NCBI GenBank assembly: GCA_046597055.1
Contig: JBKJLC010000255.1
Span: 1 to 11,259 of the forward strand
Source of the DNA: Kofleriaceae bacterium
GTDB lineage: Bacteria; Myxococcota_A; Polyangia; Haliangiales; Haliangiaceae
DNA length: 11,259 nucleotides
Reading direction: 5' to 3'
Part shown: piece by piece, positions 1 to 11,259 of the stretch
How positions within the stretch are numbered: position 1 is the stretch's first letter
How the letters are laid out: every line of letters starts with the position of its first letter
Program-made: the position numbers and the translations under genes
Notes under the pieces: generated by a model
What the model saw: the letters and a program-made list of their open reading frames with translations, nothing else
Databases searched by the model: none
What the model was told of the DNA's origin: nothing

Positions 1-1027
1 TGGAACTGGGGATCGTGGACGTACGTCGACAGCACCGCCACCACGCCCTCGCGGATGTCCTCGGCGGTGAGACTGACGCCCTTGGGGTCGAGCCCGTGCG
101 TCGCGATGTAGTTGCGGACGGCCTTCACGATGGCGGTGCGCAGGCCCTGATCGTGGGTGCCGCCGTCGGGCGTGGGGACGCTGTTGACGTGGCTCTTGAT
201 GAGGTCGTCCGTGCCCTCGGTCCACTGCAGGGCCAGCTCGACGCCGAGCTTGGCGTCGTCGTCCCGCTTCTCCAGGTAGAAGACGCCGCCGGTGGACGGC
301 ACGGGCATCTTGCCCCGGCCGGAGACCAGGGCCGGCAGCCACTCGGCGATGCCCTTCTCGTGGACGAAGCGGTGGGTCGCCGGCGGCTTCTGGGTCTCGT
401 CGATGAAGATCATCTCGAGGCCGTGGTGGAGGTAGCTCTTGGTCTCGAGGCGCTCGGCGATCCAGGCGGCGTCGAAGGCCAGCTTGCTGCCGAACACCTC
501 GTCGTCGGGCGTGAAGCTGATGCGGGTGCCGGTGCCGCGGGCGCCGCCCAGGTTCTTGAGCTTGGTGGTCGGCAGGCCGCGCGCGAAGCGCATCTCGAAG
601 CGCTCGCCGTCGCGCTTGACCTGGGCGATGAGCTCGACCGACAGGGCGTTGACGACGGCGGAGCCGACGCCGTGGAGGCCGCCGGAGACGGAGTAGCTCT
701 CGCCGCGCTCGAACTTGCCGCCGGAGTGGAGGCTGGTGAAGACGACCTCGAGGGCGGACTTCTTCTCGTCGCGCATCATGTCGATCGGGATGCCGCGGCC
801 GTTGTCGTCGACGGTGGCGCTCTTGCCGCCGTGGTGGAGGGTGACCTCGACCCGGGTGGCGTGGCCGTTGATGGCCTCGTCGATCGAGTTGTCGACGATC
901 TCCCACAGCAGGTGGTGGTAGCCGTCCTTGCCGGTGCCGCCGATGTACATGCCGGGCCGCTTGCGGACCGGGTCGAGGCCCTCGAGGACCTGGATGTCGT
1001 CGCCGGTGTAGGTCTTCGAGATCGCCA

Positions 1028-1028
<1 letters not shown>
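1..1028 (-). CDS. parE: Type IIA DNA topoisomerase B subunit, N-terminal ATPase (GHKL) and transducer region; 3' end lies beyond the window start. Probably topoisomerase IV subunit B (GyrB/ParE family)
   Basis: Not in the ORF track because it runs off the edge. Manual translation from ATG 1028 gives MAISKTYTGDDIQVLEGLDPVRKRPGMYIG...LWEIVDNSIDE...DDNGRGIP...LHSGGKF...SGGLHGVGSAVVNALS...TPDGGTH...EDIREG...DPQF, all GyrB/ParE signatures. The ATG overlaps the upstream TGA (TGATG). The family call is secure; parE rather than gyrB is inferred from the partner lacking a GyrA box. Confidence 0.9.
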
Positions 1029-3529
<2,501 letters not shown>

Positions 3530-3561
3530 CACGAATCCTCCTCGCACCGGTGAGATCGGCT

Positions 3562-3606
3562 TGGCCCTCCGGTTTGACGGGATCTCCTGTCGCGCGCGGA
3601 GGGCCA
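3562..3606. repeat. Inverted repeat / stem-loop in the divergent parC-M23 intergenic region
   Basis: TGGCCCTCCG (3562-3571) is the exact reverse complement of CGGAGGGCCA (3597-3606). An inner stem GACGGG/CCTGTC includes one G-U pair on the + strand. Confidence 0.6.
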
Positions 3607-3745
3607 GCAGGTCGTGCCGCGTCCGGATCAGCCATGGGCCAGCCCGGGCGCTTCGACCGCAACTTCGGCCGTGCCACGCGCCCTGGGCAAGTTTTTGCGC
3701 CGAGGTGCGCCCGCGTGATATCAGGGGTTCCCCCCGCAGGTAGTC

Positions 3746-5143
3746 ATGGCCGCCCGGCGCTCGAAGTCCCGCAAGAAGTCCACGCTCGAGCCCGCCCGCA
3801 GCCCGGCGCGGCGGGGCACGCTCCGCCTGCTCGTCATGCTGGCGGTGCTGGTGATGGTGAACCTCTACGTGTTCCTGTGGCGCGACGGCACCAGCCTCCC
3901 CCAGGTCCGCCAGAGCGCCGCGAACGTCGGCAAGGAGGCGCTGGTGCCGGCGCCCGCCGCCCCCGGTGGCTCGGCGCCGGCCGCGCCGTCGCGCAGCGGC
4001 ATCATCGACGGCAAGGTCGAGAAGGCCGAGAGCCTTGGCAAGATCCTGAAGACCAAGGCCAACCTGTCGGCCAGCGCCGCCGACGAGCTCATCCGCGCGG
4101 TCGGCCCGGTGTTCGACCTGCGCGCGCTGCGGGTCGGCCAGGTCTACAAGATCGTCGTGGCCGACGACGGCCGGGTCGAGCTGTTCGAGCTGGTGGTGTC
4201 GAAGACGGTGACGGTCCGGGTCGAGCGCGACCAGACCTCCGACGAGCTCGCTGGCAAGAAGGAAGAGGCGGCGACCCGCATCGAGGTGCGCGAGGTCGGC
4301 GGCCAGATCAACAGCTCGCTGTACGCGGCGATCAAGAGCTCGGGCGAGGACGGGGCGCTGGTCAGCTTCTTCGTCGACGTGTTCGCGTACGACGTCGACT
4401 TCTACAACGACACCCGCGCCGGCGACACGTTCCGGGTCGTGATCGAGAAGGAGTACAAGGACCAGGAGTTCCTGCGCTACCGGCGCATCCTCGGCGCCGA
4501 GTACAGCGGCAAGGCCGGCACGTATCGCGCCTTCCTGTGGACGCCTCCCGGCAAGACCACCGCGCGCTACTTCGACGAGCGCGGTCAGTCGGTCGAGAAG
4601 AGCATGCTGAAGACCCCGCTCAAGTTCGCGCGGGTGTCGAGCGGGTTCAACGCCAAGCGCATGCACCCGGTGCTGCACACGACCCGCGGCCACTTCGGAA
4701 CCGACTTCGCAGCGCCCACCGGCACCCCGGTGTGGGCGGCGGCCGACGGCGTGATCGTCCAGCGCGGCGTGGCCGGCGGCGCCGGCAACATGGTGACGCT
4801 CCGCCACGACAGCGGCCTGACCACGCTCTACATGCACCTGTCGAAGTTTGCCGGTGGCCAGAAGCTCGGGACGCGGGTCGCGGCCAAGACCGTGATCGGA
4901 TACGTCGGGACCACCGGGCTGTCGACCGGTCCGCACCTGCACTTCGGGGTCAAGAAGGGCGGCGCCTACGTCGACTTCCAGAAGCTGGCGCCGACCCGGG
5001 TCGGTGGCGTGGGACGGAAGGATCTCCCGGCCTTCCAGGCCGCAGTCGGCCCACTCGTCACCCGGCTGCAGCGCATCTCGACCACCGCGCCGGCGGTGCC
5101 GCCGGGCTCGGCTGCGCCGGTGCTTGCCGCGCCGCCGAGCTGA
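3746..5143 (+). CDS. M23 family metallo-endopeptidase (peptidoglycan DD-endopeptidase, MepM/YebA-like), membrane-anchored, 465 aa
   Basis: Basic N-terminus and TM helix ([18 protein letters not shown]), an OapA/LysM-like region ([10 protein letters not shown]), a central [10 protein letters not shown] domain, and an M23 catalytic domain with RMHPVL, HxxxD (HFGTD), YMHLS and HxH (STGPHLHF). Confidence 0.92.
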
Positions 5144-5227
5144 TCTGCGTCCGGCGGCAGGACGGACGACGGCAGGCGCGGTCGACCTTTGCCGTCGCCG
5201 TCGGCGCACGCTGGGCGCAATCGTGGG

Positions 5228-5256
5228 TTGCCGGGCGGGCGCGTTGCGCGCATCCT
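5228..5256 (+). promoter_or_regulatory. Possible sigma70-type promoter for the small membrane protein gene
   Basis: TTGCCG-N17-CATCCT, about 20 nt upstream of the proposed TTG start. Only a partial consensus match. Confidence 0.25.
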
Positions 5257-5278
5257 TTTGGAAGTCACGGAGGTCTTC

Positions 5279-5728
5279 TTGCTCAAGCTCCTGCTGGGTC
5301 TGTTAAAGGGTGCGGTCATCGGTGGGGCGCTCGGGTATGGCGCCTACGCCGCCGGCCTCGACGGTATTTTTAACTGGGTCACCTACGGCCTCTGCGGCGC
5401 CCTGGTCGGGGTGGTCGCCGGGCGTCCGATCTGGGCGCTCATCACCGACAAGAACTCGACCAGCTGGATCTCGGTGCTGAAGGCCGTGTTCGGCTTCGGC
5501 ATCGCCTGCGGCATCTACGCGCTGGTCGCCAAGGTGTGGGGCGGCTTCGACCTGGTGCTCGGCCAGGAGACCCGCCGCGTGCAGGACTGGCAGCCCATCT
5601 TCGGCGCCGCGATCGGCGGCTTCTGGGGAGCCTTCATCGAGATCGACGACGCGATCGGCGGCGACGACAAGGGCAAGGGCGACAAGCCGCCCGCGCGCCC
5701 GCTGCCCGCCGGCAAGCCCAAGCCGTAG
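5279..5728 (+). CDS. Hypothetical Gly-rich inner-membrane protein (about 4 TM segments), 149 aa
   Basis: TTG 5279 is preceded by GGAGG at 5 nt spacing. Codon usage is strongly GC3-biased. Hydrophobic GxxxG-rich segments ([63 protein letters not shown]) and a charged, Pro-rich tail. Confidence 0.8.
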
Positions 5729-5731
5729 GCC

Positions 5732-7066
5732 TCAGGGCAGGGCCAGCTCGACGCCGAACCCGATCCGGTCGCGGCTCCGGCCGTGGTCGCCCAGGTTGGC
5801 CGGCTCGGCCCCGCCGGAGAACGGGTTGTCCTGCGGCAAGCCCGGGCGCTCGACCGTGACGCTACGGGCCAGCTGACGCGCGAGGCCGAGCGTGATCACG
5901 GCGGCGCCGGCCGACACCTCGAGACCGAGCCCGAGCGTGTGGCCGCCGGCGTCGACGCCGACCGTGGTCGTGCCCTGACGGGCGGCACCCGCCGCCTGCC
6001 AGCTCCAGCCGGCCGACATCCACAAGAACCCCGGCAGCAGCGCGACGTCGACCGCGGCGCGCACGGCGCCATGCGAGCGGCGGGCGAACCGGGTGGGGAG
6101 CCGGCTCACGGTGGCGGTCGCGCCGCTCTCGTCGCGCACGCGCGCGCCGTCGATCGTCCAGGCGTCCTGGCCGGTCGGGTACATCCACGCCGCCGCGCCC
6201 ACCTCGGTCGCCCATCGATCGCCGAGCCAGCGCATGCCGACCGCCAGCGTGAGCGCCGATCCGAACCGCCCGTGCGCGGTGGCGCCGGCCGCCTCGACTC
6301 CCGGCGACGACCGGACCGCCGCGAGCGAGACCGGGCCGGTGGCGCGCACGTCGTCGGCCCACGCGGCGCCTAGCGCCAGCTCGATCGGGACGTCGGCGGG
6401 CGCGATCAGCGCGCCGATCGCGCCGCCCGGCACCAGCCGGTCGTCAGCGGCGATCGCGACCTCGACATCGCGGGCCGGTGAGCTCGGGCCATCACGGCCA
6501 CTGAAACCCGCCCAGATCCGCCGGGTCTCGCGGGCGTCGACCTGGCCGAGCGTCACGGTCGCGCCGATCGCGAGCCAGTCGGTCGCGCGCACCGCCGCCG
6601 CCGCCGCCACGCTCGCCCGGGTCCACCGCGCGGCCTGCCCGGCGTAGCGGTGGGGATGATCCGCGATCACCGCCGGGTCGGGCAGGCCGTCCGCCGGCGT
6701 CGGCAGCTGGCGATCGATCGACTCGGTGACCGCGACGCTGGCGCCGAGCACCACCCGCTCCCAGCCGCCCTGCACGCCGATCAGCGGCACCAGCTCGGCG
6801 GGGCCGAGGTCGCGCACCCGCGGATGCCCGGGCGCGTCGAGCCACACCGCGTCGTCGACCGCCAGCCCCGCGAGCTGCCCGCGCACGCCCCCGCGTCGCG
6901 CGATCGCGGCCGGACACAGGAACACCGCCGCGGCCCCGTCGTCGGAGACCAGGCTGGCGCCGGCGTGACCGATCGCCCGAGGCGACAGCAGGTCGAGCTC
7001 GCCGCCGGCGCTCGCCACCGCCGGCGCGAGGACCAGGGCGCCGAGAGCGGCAAGGGCGCGGACCAC
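5732..7066 (-). CDS. Outer-membrane beta-barrel protein, FadL/OmpP1/TodX-like (divergent), 444 aa
   Basis: Signal peptide ending VASA, then a FadL-like hatch segment (GGELDLLSPRAIGHAGASLVSDDGAAAVFLCPAAI, compare the family pattern G-RA-G-AGA--A-ADD--A---NPA). Alternating beta-strands (ATDWLAIGATV, IELALGAAW, HTLGLGLEV) and a terminal strand RIGFGVELAL. Confidence 0.7.
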   Translation of the reverse strand: MVRALAALGALVLAPAVASAGGELDLLSPRAIGHAGASLVSDDGAAAVFLCPAAIARRGGVRGQLAGLAVDDAVWLDAPGHPRVRDLGPAELVPLIGVQGGWERVVLGASVAVTESIDRQLPTPADGLPDPAVIADHPHRYAGQAARWTRASVAAAAAVRATDWLAIGATVTLGQVDARETRRIWAGFSGRDGPSSPARDVEVAIAADDRLVPGGAIGALIAPADVPIELALGAAWADDVRATGPVSLAAVRSSPGVEAAGATAHGRFGSALTLAVGMRWLGDRWATEVGAAAWMYPTGQDAWTIDGARVRDESGATATVSRLPTRFARRSHGAVRAAVDVALLPGFLWMSAGWSWQAAGAARQGTTTVGVDAGGHTLGLGLEVSAGAAVITLGLARQLARSVTVERPGLPQDNPFSGGAEPANLGDHGRSRDRIGFGVELALP

Positions 7067-7105
7067 GCGCCACGATACCCCAGCGCGCGTCGCGACCGCA
7101 GCGTG

Positions 7106-7570
7106 CTAGCAGCTGCAGCAGCGGTCGTTGCCGCGCTTGCAGGCAACCTTGCCGCTGTCGCAACGGCCGGCGGCCCAGGCGTCGCCGGGCAACTCGGCGG
7201 CGAGGTCGCAGATCGCGGCCGCGTTGTCGCAGATCGAGTCGCCCAGCCGGCACACGTCCTGGCAGGTCTCGCGCGGTGAGCGCGCGCACGCGGTGCGCAG
7301 GTCGGCCATCGGCACGCCGCCCGCGGCCTCGATCGACGTCGGGTCGGGCGCCTCGAGTTCGGCGGCGACCAGCTGGCTCGCGATCTCGGCATCGAGCCGG
7401 CGGATCTGCTCGCGGAGCTCGTCAGGGCGGCCGGCCAGCGGAGGCGCCTGGGTGCCAGCGGCCTCCCTGGTCGTCGCGGGAGACCGACCGGCGCTGCCGG
7501 CGCAGGCGAGGAGCGCGGTCGCGACCGTCGCCGCCGCCAGCATGCGCGGGGCCGCCATGCGCCGGATCAC
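7106..7570 (-). CDS. Cys-rich putative lipoprotein B (10-Cys C-terminal domain), 154 aa
   Basis: GTG 7570 overlaps the upstream stop (GTGA) and follows a GAGGTG SD. Lipobox-like LLAC, a helical segment (ELREQIRRLDAEIASQL), then C-x7-C-x3-C-x6-C-x6-C-x15-C-x6-C-x6-CC-x-C at the extreme C-terminus. Paralog of 7567-8079. Confidence 0.8.
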   Translation of the reverse strand: MIRRMAAPRMLAAATVATALLACAGSAGRSPATTREAAGTQAPPLAGRPDELREQIRRLDAEIASQLVAAELEAPDPTSIEAAGGVPMADLRTACARSPRETCQDVCRLGDSICDNAAAICDLAAELPGDAWAAGRCDSGKVACKRGNDRCCSC

Positions 7571-8079
7571 GGGCTCACCTCGGGCTCGCGGTCGCGGTCG
7601 CAGGTGCAGCAGCGCTGCTGGGCCTCGCGGCACGACGCCTTCGCGCTATCGCACTTGTCCTGGGCCCAGGCGTCGTTGCCGAGCTCGGCGGCGAGCGCGC
7701 AGATGTTCTCGGCGTTGTCGCAGATCGCGTCGGCGAGATCGCACACGTCGGTGCAGGTCGCGCGTTGTTCGCGCGGCCGCACGCACGCGCGGGCCGCGGT
7801 CGAGACCGACATGCGCTTGATCGCGACCACCGACGACACCTCGGGCTCGACCTGCAGGCCGGCCTCGCGCCGCCAGTCGCGGATCTGGGTCCAGAGCGCC
7901 GTGATCTCGTTGCGGCGGCCCTGCGCTGCCTGCCACGCGGGCGCCTGGGTCGGCCGGCTGCATGCGAAGGCGAAGAGGCAGGCGCCAGCGAGCGCCGCGA
8001 CCGCGCTGATCGCGACCGCGCGGCCGGCCCCGGCGTGCGGCCGGCCCGCGGCGGGGCCTCGTGGCGCGGGCCGCATCAC
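7567..8079 (-). CDS. Cys-rich putative lipoprotein A (10-Cys C-terminal domain), 170 aa
   Basis: GTG 8079 / ATG 8076 overlap the upstream TGA (GTGATG). Hydrophobic signal ending AFAC, a helical segment (RRNEITALWTQIRDWRREAG), then C-x9-C-x3-C-x6-C-x6-C-x15-C-x6-C-x6-CC-x-C. Confidence 0.82.
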   Translation of the reverse strand: MMRPAPRGPAAGRPHAGAGRAVAISAVAALAGACLFAFACSRPTQAPAWQAAQGRRNEITALWTQIRDWRREAGLQVEPEVSSVVAIKRMSVSTAARACVRPREQRATCTDVCDLADAICDNAENICALAAELGNDAWAQDKCDSAKASCREAQQRCCTCDRDREPEVSP

Positions 8080-8678
8080 CGCTCTCCCATGAGTCGCTTC
8101 TGCAGCGCCTCGGCGATCTGGTTCGAGCGCTCGAGCGCCATGATCGCCTGCTTGCGCAGCTCGTCGGCCCGCGCGTCGTCGGCGGGCGCCCCGGTGCCGT
8201 CGAGGATCGCGGCCTGCGCGCGCAGGACCTCGCTCCGCACCGTATGCAGGTTGGCGACGAAGAACGACTCGCGGGTCGCTGCCCCCAGGCCCTCGTCGAC
8301 GACGCTCATCGCCGCCTCGAGCTGGGCCTGACCGACCAGCAGCTTGGCCAGGAGCGCGCGGGCGTCGAGCCGGACATCCTCGGCCTCGGGCGCGCCCGCG
8401 GGGAACGGCAGGGTGAGGATCTGTCGGACCGCCGCGGTGGCCTCGGGGAGCTTGCCATCACCCATGTAGACCCGCGCCATCTGATGAAAATTCTTCGCGC
8501 GCAGCAGCGCGAGCATCAGCTCGTCGTCGATCGCGTCCTCGGGCGCTGTGATCCGGACCGCGGCAGGCCGCTCCCGGTCGCCATCGCCCGACGAGCAGGC
8601 CGGGCCCACCGCGCCGGCAACCCCCAGGGCGAGCCCGAGCGCGACGACCCGTCGGCGACCGACAGCGAAGAACCTCAT
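8076..8678 (-). CDS. Putative lipoprotein with TPR-like helical repeats, 200 aa
   Basis: ATG 8678 has a GGAGGT SD and overlaps the upstream stop (ATGA). Signal MRFFAVGRRRVVALGLALGVAGAVGPAC-SSG. TPR-like helices: FHQMARVYMGDGKLPEATAAVRQIL, ARALLAKLLVGQAQLEAAMSVVDEGL, ANLHTVRSEVLRAQA. Confidence 0.78.
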   Translation of the reverse strand: MRFFAVGRRRVVALGLALGVAGAVGPACSSGDGDRERPAAVRITAPEDAIDDELMLALLRAKNFHQMARVYMGDGKLPEATAAVRQILTLPFPAGAPEAEDVRLDARALLAKLLVGQAQLEAAMSVVDEGLGAATRESFFVANLHTVRSEVLRAQAAILDGTGAPADDARADELRKQAIMALERSNQIAEALQKRLMGER

Positions 8679-9349
8679 GGCGTACCTCCACGCAACCCGG
8701 GCCGTTCGAACGTGCGCTCGCGATAACCGGCGAGCCGGTCGGCGTAGATCGTCTCGATGCGACCGAGCGCATCGCCGCTCGCCTCGCGCGCGATCGCGCC
8801 GATCAGCGGGTCGGCCGGCCGCGAGCGCCAGTGGGTGGGCAGGGTCGGCTGCGCGGCCACCGGCGGCGGCGGCGGCGGGCGACGACCGGCGATCAGGATC
8901 GCGACCGCCGCGGCCGCGACCGCCGAGGTGACGCCGGCGATCGCCCACGGGGCGGCGCGCCGCCAGCGCGGTCCGCGCAGCGGCGCCACCCCGGCAGCGG
9001 CCGCGGTGATCGACGGATCGGTCAGCCGCGGGCCACCGCCGCCACCGCCGCGGCGCTCGATCGCGGTGGCCAGCGCGGCCTCGATGATCGAGCGCTGCTT
9101 GCCGGCGTTCAGCTCGACCGGGCGGACCGCCGCCCGCAGCGCGGTCGCGACCTCGAGCAGCCCGCGATCCTCGGCGGGCACCGCGGCCGGCGTGCGCCCG
9201 GTCAGGAGCTTGTCGACCAGCTCGCCGAACGAGCGCGCGCGCGCCTTTTCGCCGGCATCGGCCGGGGCGTCGGGCGCCGGCAACGGGCCCAGGCGCAGGT
9301 CGGCGTCGTCGTCGCCGTGGAGGTCGGGGTCGTGGTCGTCGCGGGTCAT
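8675..9349 (-). CDS. Single-pass membrane protein, putative anti-sigma factor, 224 aa
   Basis: Directly downstream of the ECF sigma gene. Cytoplasmic helical N-domain (ARSFGELVDKLL...LLEVATALRAA), then a basic stretch and TM helix (RWRRAAPWAIAGVTSAVAAAAVAILIA), a poly-Pro linker and a short extracytoplasmic domain. The function is inferred from position and topology. Confidence 0.7.
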   Translation of the reverse strand: MTRDDHDPDLHGDDDADLRLGPLPAPDAPADAGEKARARSFGELVDKLLTGRTPAAVPAEDRGLLEVATALRAAVRPVELNAGKQRSIIEAALATAIERRGGGGGGPRLTDPSITAAAAGVAPLRGPRWRRAAPWAIAGVTSAVAAAAVAILIAGRRPPPPPPVAAQPTLPTHWRSRPADPLIGAIAREASGDALGRIETIYADRLAGYRERTFERPGLRGGTP

Positions 9350-9398
9350 GGGGCTTCGTCTCGGCAGCGGCGGCGCAGGGCGGTGGGGCGGGCGGCGC

Positions 9399-10016
9399 TC
9401 ATACGGCAGCCGCCGGGATCTTGTCGCCGAATCTTTTACGGAACGAGCGGACGGCGCGGTGGAGCAGCACGTCGAAGGTGCCGACCGTGATCGCGAACCG
9501 GCGCGCGCACTCGTCGCGCGACAGCTCGTCGATCAACCGTAGCTGGATCGCGGCCCGGTAGCGCTCGGGAAGCTCGGCAAGGGCGACATCGATGCGCTCG
9601 CGATGGGCGCGCCGCTCCTCCTCGGCCATGATCACGGCGTCGGCCGCGCTGGCGGGGTCGGTCTCGGTCGACAGCTCCTGCGCCATCGCGTCGGCCAGGC
9701 GGCGCGACCGCTTGTTCGACCGGTGGACGTCGTAGACCTTGTTGATCGCGATCTGGCGCAACCACGGGTAGATGGTCTTGCCCTGCCAGGTGAAGCGGTT
9801 GATCTTCTCGACCGCGGTCGCCAGGGTGTCGCGCAGCACGTCCTCGGCGGTCGCGGCGTCGCCCAGCCTCGGCAGGATCACTGTCGAGTAGAGCGGCTGG
9901 GCGTAGCGTTCGAGGATAGGTCGCATGGCGTCGAGGTTGCCGCGCTGGGCCTCCTCGACCAGGCGTTGCTCCTCGTCGAGCAGGACGCTGTGATCTGTCG
10001 CAGGTTCGGAGGCCAA
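9399..10016 (-). CDS. RNA polymerase ECF (group IV sigma-70) sigma factor, about 205 aa
   Basis: Region 2 (EQRLVEEAQRGNLDAMRPILERY...AEDVLRDTL...WLRQIAINKVYDVHR) and region 4 (ALAELPERYRAAIQLRLIDELSRDECARRFAITVGTFDVLLHRA). Proposed TTG start at 10016 with AGGGGA upstream; the exact start is uncertain. The longer track ORF extension overlaps truA and is not credible. Confidence 0.9.
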   Translation of the reverse strand: MASEPATDHSVLLDEEQRLVEEAQRGNLDAMRPILERYAQPLYSTVILPRLGDAATAEDVLRDTLATAVEKINRFTWQGKTIYPWLRQIAINKVYDVHRSNKRSRRLADAMAQELSTETDPASAADAVIMAEEERRAHRERIDVALAELPERYRAAIQLRLIDELSRDECARRFAITVGTFDVLLHRAVRSFRKRFGDKIPAAAV

Positions 10017-10029
10017 GTACCGATCCCCT

Positions 10030-10056
10030 AACGCCGAGTGGCTAGCGCACCTTACA
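10030..10056 (-). promoter_or_regulatory. Candidate ECF-type (autoregulatory) promoter TGTAAG-N17-CGTT
   Basis: Minus strand reads TGTAAG gtgcgctagccactcgg CGTTA just upstream of the sigma gene. This resembles the common ECF architecture AAC-N16/17-CGT. The -35 element contains the TAA stop of truA. Confidence 0.45.
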
Positions 10057-10873
10057 CACCCGGCGGCGGCGCCGGACCGCGCAGGCGGCCATCGTACCGC
10101 ACCGCCACCAGCGTGAGGCCGTGAGCGGGCGCGGTCTGCCCGGCCCGGCGGCGGTCCCGAGACGCAATGATCTCCGCGATCTGCGCGGCGGCGAGGCGGC
10201 CTTCGCCCACGCCGAGCAGGGTCCCGACCAGGATCCGGACCATGTTGCGCAGGAAGGCATCGCCCTCGACGTCGATCGCCAGCACGTCGGGATCGCCCAT
10301 CCGGGGGCCGATCTCGACGCGGTGCAGGGTCCGGGTGGTGGTGCGCGCCGCGCAGCCGGTGGCCCGGAAGCCCGCGAAGTCGTGGCGCCCGATGAACCCG
10401 CGGGCGGCCTCGGCCATCGCCGCGTGATCGAGCGCCTCGGGCCGGTGCCAGGCCCAGCGTGCCCAGCGCGGCGATCGGTCGGCGCGGTTCACCACCAGGT
10501 ACTGGTAGTGCTTCCCGCTGGCGGAGAAGCGGGGATGGAAGTCGGCGGGCACCTCGGCGACGTCGGTGACCGCGATCGCCGGCGGCAACAGGCCGTTGAG
10601 GCCGCGGCGCAGGCCGTGGACCGGGATGGTCCGCACGGTCTGGAAGGTCGCGACCTGGCCGAGCGCGTGGACGCCGGCGTCGGTGCGCGACGCGCCGGTG
10701 ACCCGCACCTCGTGCTGCAGCATGGTCGCCAGCGCGCGCTCGAGATGCGCCTGCACGGTCGGCGCGTTGGGCTGGCGCTGCCACCCGCCCAGCTCGGTGC
10801 CGTCGTACTCGATCGTCAGCCGCAGCTGGCGGGTCGCGCCGGCTGCCGAGGGCTCACGATCGTCGTCGTCCAC
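10052..10873 (-). CDS. truA: tRNA pseudouridine(38-40) synthase, about 273 aa
   Basis: LTIEYDGTELGGWQRQ, TVQAHLE, catalytic GASRTDAGVHALGQV, FHPRFSA, GRHDFAGF, FLRNMVRILVG, TAPAHGLTL. GTG 10873 lies 5 nt after the upstream stop. Confidence 0.96.
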   Translation of the reverse strand: MDDDDREPSAAGATRQLRLTIEYDGTELGGWQRQPNAPTVQAHLERALATMLQHEVRVTGASRTDAGVHALGQVATFQTVRTIPVHGLRRGLNGLLPPAIAVTDVAEVPADFHPRFSASGKHYQYLVVNRADRSPRWARWAWHRPEALDHAAMAEAARGFIGRHDFAGFRATGCAARTTTRTLHRVEIGPRMGDPDVLAIDVEGDAFLRNMVRILVGTLLGVGEGRLAAAQIAEIIASRDRRRAGQTAPAHGLTLVAVRYDGRLRGPAPPPGV

Positions 10874-10878
10874 CGCGG

Positions 10879-11259
10879 TCAGAACTCGAAGTCGATGCCG
10901 CCCGACCAGGTGGTGTCGCCGAGCGACATCTTCTTCTCGCTGCCGAAGCCGTCGACCCACGCGGTCGAGACCTCCGCGAAGAAGCCGGCGTGCTCGATGC
11001 CGCTGTCGCGCATCGACCGTGCGCCGTCGGGATCGATCCGCTCGGCACGGAGCGAGAGCCCGGCGGCCGCGACCAGGCCCATCGAGGCCCCGCGGGCACG
11101 GTCACTCACGCAGCTCATCTCGTCCGTCTCGCAGACGTCCGACACCTTGCCGTCGGGGCGGGTGATCCACCAGACGTAGTAGCCGAGGCCGCCGCGCAGG
11201 TAGGGCACCACCGGCACGCCCCACTGATCGTCGAGCTGGGAGACGCGATAGATCGCGGT
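10879..11259 (-). CDS. Outer-membrane beta-barrel protein, C-terminal part (5' truncated); resembles the myxobacterial MXAN_2562-type barrels
   Basis: The frame is open to the window end (TAIYRVSQLDDQWGVPVVPYLRGGLGYYVWW...GLSLRAERIDPDGARSM...GIEHAGFFAE...TWSGGIDFEF*). Amphipathic strands and a C-terminal Phe beta-signal. The family resemblance is from recall, not from a search. Confidence 0.75.
   Translation of the reverse strand, partial: TAIYRVSQLDDQWGVPVVPYLRGGLGYYVWWITRPDGKVSDVCETDEMSCVSDRARGASMGLVAAAGLSLRAERIDPDGARSMRDSGIEHAGFFAEVSTAWVDGFGSEKKMSLGDTTWSGGIDFEF

Follow-up and report, generated by a model that had tools for sequence, protein, structure and literature searches.

Several described extracytoplasmic function (ECF) sigma factor systems resemble the one reported here. 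In Escherichia coli, the sigma factor RpoE is paired with the membrane anti-sigma factor RseA and with RseB, an operon-encoded periplasmic protein that binds RseA, and the outputs of the system are envelope-related (PMC8103513). In Myxococcus xanthus, the sigma factor DdvS is paired with the single-pass anti-sigma factor DdvA, whose bulky tetratricopeptide repeat (TPR) domain has been proposed to block RseP (PMC11506125). We examined an 11,259-nucleotide stretch of DNA from a Kofleriaceae bacterium (GenBank assembly GCA_046597055.1, contig JBKJLC010000255.1, positions 1 to 11,259; hereafter, the window). In this window, five co-oriented genes on the minus strand encode an ECF sigma factor, a membrane protein (gene 2), a TPR-fold lipoprotein and two cysteine-rich lipoproteins, CysA and CysB. 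An earlier note on this DNA had singled out these genes as a candidate envelope signalling module. We find that the core is a four-gene unit comprising the ECF sigma factor, the single-pass membrane protein, the TPR lipoprotein and one Cys-rich lipoprotein, with CysB being a paralogue of CysA. The unit is real, occurs across the phylum and constitutes an ECF module that is apparently undescribed and that appears to vary the logic of RseA and RseB. To our knowledge, neither a regulator nor a regulon is known for most myxobacterial ECF sigma factors outside Myxococcus.

Conservation of the Module across Myxococcota

The sigma gene (9399..10016, minus strand) begins with a TTG codon and encodes 205 amino acids (aa). 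Among the five genes, it alone scores above family cut-offs in Pfam and NCBIfam (Sigma70_r2, 37.5 versus 24; Sigma70_r4_2, 47.6 versus 25.7; TIGR02937, 71.1 versus 42.9). Its sequence identifies it as an ECF (group 4) sigma factor with sigma2 and sigma4 domains only, and the alignment reveals the clade signatures ILPRLG, F.WQG and FDV.L.RA. A search of 301 Myxococcota genomes with a broad sigma profile yielded 84 copies in 81 genomes, three of which carry two copies, and one locus was fetched for each match. All matches have E values of 3e-55 or better, and the gap to 1e-35 is empty, which marks a discrete clade. The profile has no match in the other 220 genomes, whole families included (0 of 26, 0 of 23 and 0 of 18).

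The full unit of membrane protein, TPR lipoprotein and Cys gene accompanies the sigma gene in 36 of the 84 copies. Three copies lack an adjacent Cys gene, one of these being cut by a contig end, and 41 copies carry a different, long membrane protein gene at +1 and no Cys gene; the remaining four loci end too soon to be classed. Either gene 2 or the long form, which we refer to as the split and fused types, occupies the +1 position in all 80 assessable loci. The expectation that the lipoproteins would recur beside this sigma factor in other genomes is borne out by the split-type loci, 36 of 39 of which keep a Cys gene beside the TPR gene. Because truA adjoins the unit in only six of these 39 loci, the module is independent of its flanks, and it is conserved across the phylum as one unit. 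General synteny of the order was rejected as the cause of this conservation, given that the flanks differ outside the order and in loci L041 and L042.

Junctions are also conserved. Stop and start codons overlap in an NTGA sequence between the membrane protein and TPR genes in 118 of 124 modules and between the TPR and Cys genes in 111 of 124, while a direct overlap of this kind joins the sigma and membrane protein genes in 43 of 120. In the window, the overlaps ATGA (8675-8678), GTGA (8076-8079) and GTGA (7567-7570) are all present as noted earlier, and are preceded by the Shine-Dalgarno-like motifs GGAGG, GGAG and GAGG, respectively. No direct overlap exists between the sigma gene and gene 2, which are separated by a 49-nucleotide gap. 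This gap is spanned by an 18-codon open reading frame (9346..9402, minus strand) that runs across the sigma stop codon and the next ATG, and that may be a relic of coupling or may have arisen by chance. Contigs from one metatranscriptome, which contained 6% of the words, cover short pieces of the sigma gene and gene 2 from a relative, with no junction bridged.

Genes 2 to 5 each occur at a single locus in their own genome. CysA is matched in 41 of 61 related genomes, where the loci retain the order of sigma, membrane protein, TPR and Cys genes, and the homologues carry the names Kofleriaceae, Haliangiales and Polyangiaceae. The TPR gene is present in cultured Sorangium and Chondromyces strains, in which its annotation reads hypothetical or goes no further than lipoprotein, secreted protein or TPR protein. 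In split loci L074-L087, the operon appears by eye to continue into an acyltransferase-like gene and, in many cases, a J-domain-like gene.

A Conserved Promoter-like Motif and Its Candidate Targets

A predicted autoregulatory ECF promoter, TGTAAG-N17-CGTT, lies ahead of the sigma gene at 10030..10056 on the minus strand, with its -35 box overlapping the truA stop codon. Thus, the limit of 10056 given to the module in the earlier note is the first base of this promoter-like motif and not the start of the sigma gene, which is the TTG at 10016. A relaxed version, GTAAG-N16/17-CGT, is found within 200 nucleotides upstream of the sigma gene in 150 of 167 de-duplicated regions, in split and fused loci alike, and the strict form TGTAAG...CGTT is found in 128 of 167; shuffled controls give a mean of 1.0 and a maximum of 5. 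When 12 of the 17 regions that lack the motif were re-read, it was located further upstream in seven, downstream of the sigma gene in three and off the operon strand in two. An artefact of the truA stop codon was rejected, since the motif persists where truA is absent.

Seven strict sites occur in the genome of origin, compared to 0.62 expected, and 15 other genomes hold 127 sites compared to 37 for a backwards control. Among 90 sites that were fetched, 80 do not belong to a sigma gene, and 69 of these have a gene within 120 nucleotides. A lipobox-bearing gene lies downstream at 28 of the 80 sites, and a gene with some form of signal peptide at 39. Two sets of control sites give 7 of 111 and 36 of 704 (5-6% with a lipobox), and the figure among called genes is no more than 691 of 6,961. 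Families that recur among the candidate targets include DUF4349 lipoproteins (7), a small TPR protein (7), vWA/YfbK lipoproteins, DUF4139 proteins and a number of lipoproteins without a name. Judging from these sequences, it is likely that the sigma factor switches on its own operon together with mostly lipoprotein and exported-protein genes from this motif, and that the regulon is labile between genomes.

Three side observations concern these sites. The small TPR protein, one of the two commonest targets, is 101-116 aa in length and carries no signal peptide (G000:C285:8266-8589, L242, L246, L253, L256, L269 and L296). In two second module copies (L217:3823-4320 and L219:3928-4572), the variant CGTAAG...CGTT sits between the sigma gene and gene 2, and because of this placement the sigma factor would directly induce its own putative inhibitor. 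Lastly, a strict motif at G000:C225:13676 (minus strand) lies 248 nucleotides upstream of a gene for another single-pass anti-sigma-like protein, which could reflect cross-talk or chance.

Split and Fused Forms of the Membrane Protein

Gene 2 (8675..9349, minus strand) encodes a putative anti-sigma factor of 224 aa with a helical N-domain, one transmembrane helix at about residues 136-154, and a conserved 70-aa periplasmic tail. A single transmembrane helix is predicted in 28 of 28 and 25 of 26 aligned rows, and the tail measures 45-87 aa among split forms. Conservation of the N-domain is low, with a mean identity of 24%. The zinc-binding motif HxxxCxxC is found in 0 of 28, 0 of 26 and 0 of 22 aligned rows, and 27 of the 28 near rows lack cysteine altogether. 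A profile of gene 2 searched against the sequences in the Protein Data Bank (PDB) returned no anti-sigma chain and nothing meaningful. Its position and topology suggest that gene 2 is likely to be an anti-sigma factor.

The fused form, classed by its N-domain (n = 41), is also a single-pass protein, with complete copies mostly 335-680 aa long. In complete copies, a long low-complexity linker leads to a C-terminal TPR region, although several copies are cut by contig ends. A Pfam scan of fused forms finds TPR families only, and the FecR family is not among the Pfam hits of 26 split and 22 fused proteins. The TPR lipoprotein aligns with the fused form's C-terminal domain (hhalign, 98%, E 2e-13). 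To control for resemblance shared by TPR proteins in general, fused proteins were ranked with the lipoprotein profile together with 52,344 six-frame segments of the genome of origin, and 12 of 22 fused proteins rank above the best other segment (18.7 bits). These alignments show that the TPR lipoprotein and the domain at the C-terminus of the fused form are homologues.

Alignment between split and fused N-domains is weak (60.7%, E 8e-5). None of the 41 fused loci has an adjacent Cys gene, and none of the genomes concerned is among the 41 matches of a broad Cys profile. In a FastTree phylogeny of 54 selected sigma factors and three outgroups from the genome of origin, whose root is uncertain, the 24 fused sigmas group in a single clade (support 0.70) that lies within the split ones. 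Fused loci L195, L202, L205, L207, L213, L214 and L218 often continue with a gene for a 278-285-aa protein and one for an ‘LVTGA’ protein, which by eye look acyltransferase-like and epimerase-like. Furthermore, a second fused-type membrane protein gene lies nearby at L191:3935-5062, and the protein of L194 contains the N-domain motif twice.

The TPR Lipoprotein and Its Predicted Complex with the Tail

The TPR-fold lipoprotein (8076..8678, minus strand) consists of 200 aa with its lipobox cysteine at position 28. Its AlphaFold2 (AF2) model comprises six helices (pLDDT 87.6) and, on structure comparison, matches the LGN TPR domain (Z 17.1, rmsd 2.5, 129 aligned residues) and DdvA (Z 15.5, rmsd 2.6, 117 aligned). 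TPR_2 and TPR_8 are matched in 13 of 28 rows in Pfam, and the MucB/RseB family is absent among the Pfam hits of all 28. The modelled fold is thus that of a helical TPR solenoid.

A complex was modelled from three chains: residues 45-200 of the TPR lipoprotein, mature CysA, and residues 169-218 of gene 2, the tail being the sole scored partner. The tail on the TPR lipoprotein scores 0.82, compared to 0.01 for the highest-scoring of three controls; the score falls to 0.00 when the TPR lipoprotein is replaced. In calibration, 116 of 157 solved complexes attain the score mark, as do two of 215 mismatched pairs. Separate runs share at least 68% of contacts, with a partner pLDDT of at least 67. The contacts listed involve L58, A61, H65, D101, D105, F139 and N143 of the TPR lipoprotein and D180, I183, I186, R197, I198, I201, Y202 and R205 of the tail, and interface columns are more conserved than the rest (0.74 versus 0.51 and 0.61 versus 0.41). 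The model therefore supports predicted binding of the tail by the TPR lipoprotein. It lists no confident contact between CysA and the tail, which is not evidence against binding because the tail alone was scored. Of the earlier suggestion that the three lipoproteins form a complex with the short periplasmic tail, the part concerning the TPR lipoprotein gains support from this prediction, and it is only this lipoprotein for which there is such evidence.

The Cys-Rich Lipoproteins

CysA (7567..8079, minus strand; 170 aa) and CysB (7106..7570, minus strand; 154 aa, with a start at GTG 7570 or ATG 7558) are 44% identical (E 3e-23), and each has 10 cysteines after the lipobox cysteine. The description of both as 10-Cys lipoproteins is accurate for this genome, but ten is one variant in a series that runs from 4 to 10. 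Likewise, both genes are present in the operon as noted, but the second is a lineage-limited paralogue: two Cys matches are found in 14 of 16 genomes of the same genus and one in each of the six matching genomes from the other families of the order.

CysA is modelled as a three-helix bundle (AF2 pLDDT 86.6; helices at 47-71, 106-131 and 136-159). Structure comparison returns generic three-helix bundles only, with a best Z of 8.4, and no copper-storage protein is among the 50 rows listed. The copper-storage protein Csp is a four-helix bundle with free thiols. Neither CysA nor CysB matches Pfam or NCBIfam, PDB sequence searches give nothing meaningful, and the Atlas contains only unnamed Myxococcota clusters for CysA.

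Proposed Mechanism and Alternatives

We lean, if only slightly, towards a membrane-held sigma factor whose putative anti-sigma factor is capped at its tail by the TPR lipoprotein, as RseA is capped by RseB. The N-domain of gene 2 would sequester the sigma factor at the inner membrane, and the TPR lipoprotein would sit on the tail as a protective cap, using its conserved TPR surface as predicted. By analogy with RseB and DdvA, removal of the cap would expose the short tail to RseP-type intramembrane proteolysis and free the sigma factor; two RseP-family genes score over the cut-off in the genome of origin. The freed sigma factor would then read TGTAAG-N16/17-CGTT to activate its own operon along with a few other genes, which vary between genomes and mostly encode lipoproteins and exported proteins. 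The weakest step concerns the putatively disulfide-stapled Cys lipoprotein, which might pull the cap off or hold it on, with failed lipoprotein sorting or oxidative folding as the possible trigger.

A number of points weigh against this scheme. Binding of the sigma factor by the N-domain of gene 2 is putative, and gene 2 matches no Pfam or NCBIfam family and no anti-sigma family. The Cys gene is not adjacent in two complete split loci, and orphan Cys genes occur. The conservation of interface residues was judged from the same alignments as those used for the complex prediction, the three-chain set-up and custom alignments differ from those used in calibrating the score, and solved structures include many TPR-peptide complexes, such that the score may partly reflect likeness to them. 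Regarding the regulon, the lipobox controls were drawn from the genome of origin only, the motif excess is weak in four of the 15 other genomes (14 versus 10, 7 versus 6, 5 versus 4 and 5 versus 4 sites), and two of six own-genome homologues carry the motif when 11 recurrent target families are queried. In E. coli, the Lol +2 rule sends lipoproteins without Asp at +2 to the outer membrane. This residue is present in four of 99 TPR lipoboxes, and by the E. coli rule the other 95 would be sent away from the short tail. Finally, no counterpart of the split tail was detected in the fused protein, and because the fused form is a single clade, fusion accompanied by loss of the Cys gene counts as one event.

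It is possible, though we would put it forward only tentatively, that the sigma factor is dedicated to lipoprotein homeostasis, with the Cys lipoprotein reporting failure of sorting or oxidative folding to the TPR cap and a lipoprotein regulon being induced in response. Under this proposal, gene 2 would be a zinc-free anti-sigma factor of an undescribed family, and one lineage would have collapsed the relay by fusing the TPR domain to the anti-sigma factor and dropping the Cys gene.

The distribution of Cys genes bears on a further proposal that we consider unlikely but worth retaining, namely that the core of sigma, anti-sigma and TPR lipoprotein acts as above while the Cys lipoproteins are envelope-supporting outputs of the regulon with no part in signalling. 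The Cys family is also found away from the operon as orphan copies, with one to five copies per genome, and is missing from the 41 fused-type loci. An orphan Cys gene in L322 is preceded by its own copy of the motif, a further Cys gene stands first in the operon behind the motif in L091 and L092, and the regulon is rich in lipoproteins in any case. Thus, the Cys protein may be an output rather than a sensor. However, its gene immediately follows the TPR gene in 36 of the 39 split loci, and the NTGA overlap joins the two in 111 of 124 modules, while other targets turn over, and six other loci with orphan-type Cys matches have no motif ahead of them.

We regard as distinctly improbable a reversed polarity, in which an outer-membrane-bound TPR lipoprotein would meet the tail when transport stalls, and binding would activate the sigma factor. 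NlpE and RcsF activate their systems in a comparable manner. The scarcity of Asp at +2 and the short tail of 45-87 aa would fit such an arrangement, as would targets that are mostly lipoproteins, and the predicted interface gives no direction. On the other hand, the TPR domain is permanently attached in the fused form, which fits a cap better than a trigger, and the argument leans on an E. coli sorting rule that may not be myxobacterial.

The pattern of cysteine gain and loss makes it very unlikely that the Cys lipoproteins sense metal or redox state through their thiols and switch the system via their cysteines. Such a role had been suggested earlier, and ten cysteines in a small helical domain might invite it, as might the presence among downstream genes of one family with a Cu-binding_MopE motif and of one thioredoxin. 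But the number of cysteines in the domain is lineage-specific, ranging from 4 to 10 with the operon intact throughout, and the residues change in pairs. From 107 first-Cys genes, 103 were parsed, with numbering from the ATG at 8076. Both members of C119/C149 are present in 92 of these 103 rows and neither in 11, with no row having only one, and this loss probably represents one event. For C112/C159, 93 rows have both, three the first only, one the second only and six neither; the partner is shifted by one residue in the three C112-only rows, and loss is seen in at least three families. C98/C157 are both present in 67 rows and both absent from 31, with one C98-only row and four C157-only rows that are a trimming artefact. 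Because the cysteines change in pairs, a metal or redox site is less likely than a set of structural disulfides. The CysA bundle is likely to be stapled by five disulfides, the predicted pairs being 98-157, 108-156, 112-159, 119-149 and 126-142. Paired loss speaks against a fixed metal site and would be compatible with dependence on oxidative folding.

Lastly, gene 2 could be a mere membrane anchor for a TPR/Cys envelope complex in an operon that is simply a sigma target, as its lack of a match to any anti-sigma family or structure and its weakly conserved N-domain might suggest, but its +1 position in every assessable locus, its cytoplasmic helical N-domain with one transmembrane helix, and the alignment, though weak, of split and fused N-domains make this highly improbable.

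If the scheme that we favor holds, a widespread and mostly single-copy sigma clade gains a candidate anti-sigma factor, a partner predicted to bind through the interface residues named above, a promoter motif and a set of candidate targets. The occurrence of both a split and a fused form suggests that the sensor domain of an anti-sigma factor can exist as a separate lipoprotein. In addition, the candidate regulon would give context to the DUF4349, DUF4139 and YfbK-type vWA lipoproteins.

Neighboring Genes

Beyond the 3′ end of the operon, a gene at 5732-7066 (minus strand) encodes a 444-aa signal-peptide protein with an outer-membrane-like C-terminus and no Pfam or NCBIfam match. It adjoins the operon in many Haliangiales, yet does so in only four of the 39 split loci of the phylum. 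Upstream of the operon in Haliangiales are truA (10052-10873, minus strand) and a gene for an MXAN_2562-family outer-membrane beta-barrel (10879-11259, minus strand; NF040596, 123.5 versus 100). These three genes were rejected as parts of the module, being adjacent in four (444-aa gene), six (truA) and four (MXAN_2562-family gene) of 39 loci. The remainder of the window holds a topoisomerase A-like and then a B-like gene (1-3400, minus strand; judged from translations), an M23 peptidase (3746-5143, plus strand) and an unnamed membrane protein (~5240-5728, plus strand), a block that is syntenic across Haliangiales.

Comparison with Known Systems

Like RpoE/RseA/RseB, the module combines an ECF sigma factor, a putative membrane anti-sigma factor, an operon-encoded, predicted periplasmic binder and envelope-related candidate outputs. 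The predicted binder, however, is a TPR lipoprotein rather than a member of the RseB/MucB family, it is fused to the anti-sigma factor in one lineage, and an extra Cys lipoprotein is present. RseB-like binding of the periplasmic part of the anti-sigma factor is here a predicted property (0.82 versus 0.01). Furthermore, the sigma factor is distant from RpoE (E 2e-18, versus 3e-55 or better inside the clade).

DdvS/DdvA shares with the module an ECF sigma factor, a single-pass anti-sigma factor (here putative) and a periplasmic TPR domain (Z 15.5) (PMC11506125, PMC6061681). As described in these reports, the DdvS promoter also has GTAA and CGT boxes, with a spacer of n16; here the spacing is GTAA-n17/18-CGT in 150 of 150 sites and never n16, which is one or two bases longer. 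DdvA has a zinc-bound N-domain with a CHCC motif, in contrast to gene 2 (HxxxCxxC in 0 of 28, 26 and 22 rows). It also carries a periplasmic TPR-CHAT region, whereas there is no CHAT protease here and the TPR domain is supplied in trans to a tail of 45-87 aa. The reported targets of DdvS are CBASS or CRISPR genes, unlike the candidate lipoprotein targets found here (46 scanned).

Streptomyces BldN is the closest sigma factor both among solved structures (6dxo, E 5e-28) and in NCBIfam, although the score of 79.1 for the BldN family TIGR02952 is below the cut-off of 206.45. BldN/RsbN (ECF121) shares the F.WQG motif and a single-pass protein at +1 (PMC7826278). RsbN has a class III anti-sigma domain; the gene 2 profile retrieved no anti-sigma chain from the PDB sequences. 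According to the accessible text of that classification, however, members of ECF121 are 100% Actinobacteria and carry 30-130 aa of N-terminal extension, and its description does not mention a TPR or Cys lipoprotein; the present sigma factors belong to Myxococcota, with the family match beginning at residue 19. The promoter of the BldN-related ShbA is CGTAAC-N16-CGATGA (PMC12019637). CorE (ECF238) bears a C-terminal Cys-rich domain on the sigma factor, whereas the sigma factor here has no such domain and a single cysteine.

The descriptions of three myxobacterial ECF groups contain, in the available text, no such gene context and no GTAAG (PMC7826278). ECF210 has no regulator listed and unconserved promoters, ECF216 has partly zinc-finger anti-sigma factors, and ECF267 has FecR-like/TPR anti-sigma factors with kinases. 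ECF210 and ECF267 come from Sorangium and Chondromyces, according to the same text, and these genera also hold the TPR lipoprotein described here. The module could belong to ECF210 or ECF267 as a part not yet described, or it could be ungrouped. Our literature search, which mostly excluded subscription journals, found no description of the module, which in its proposed operation resembles RpoE/RseA/RseB and has parts in common with DdvS/DdvA and BldN.

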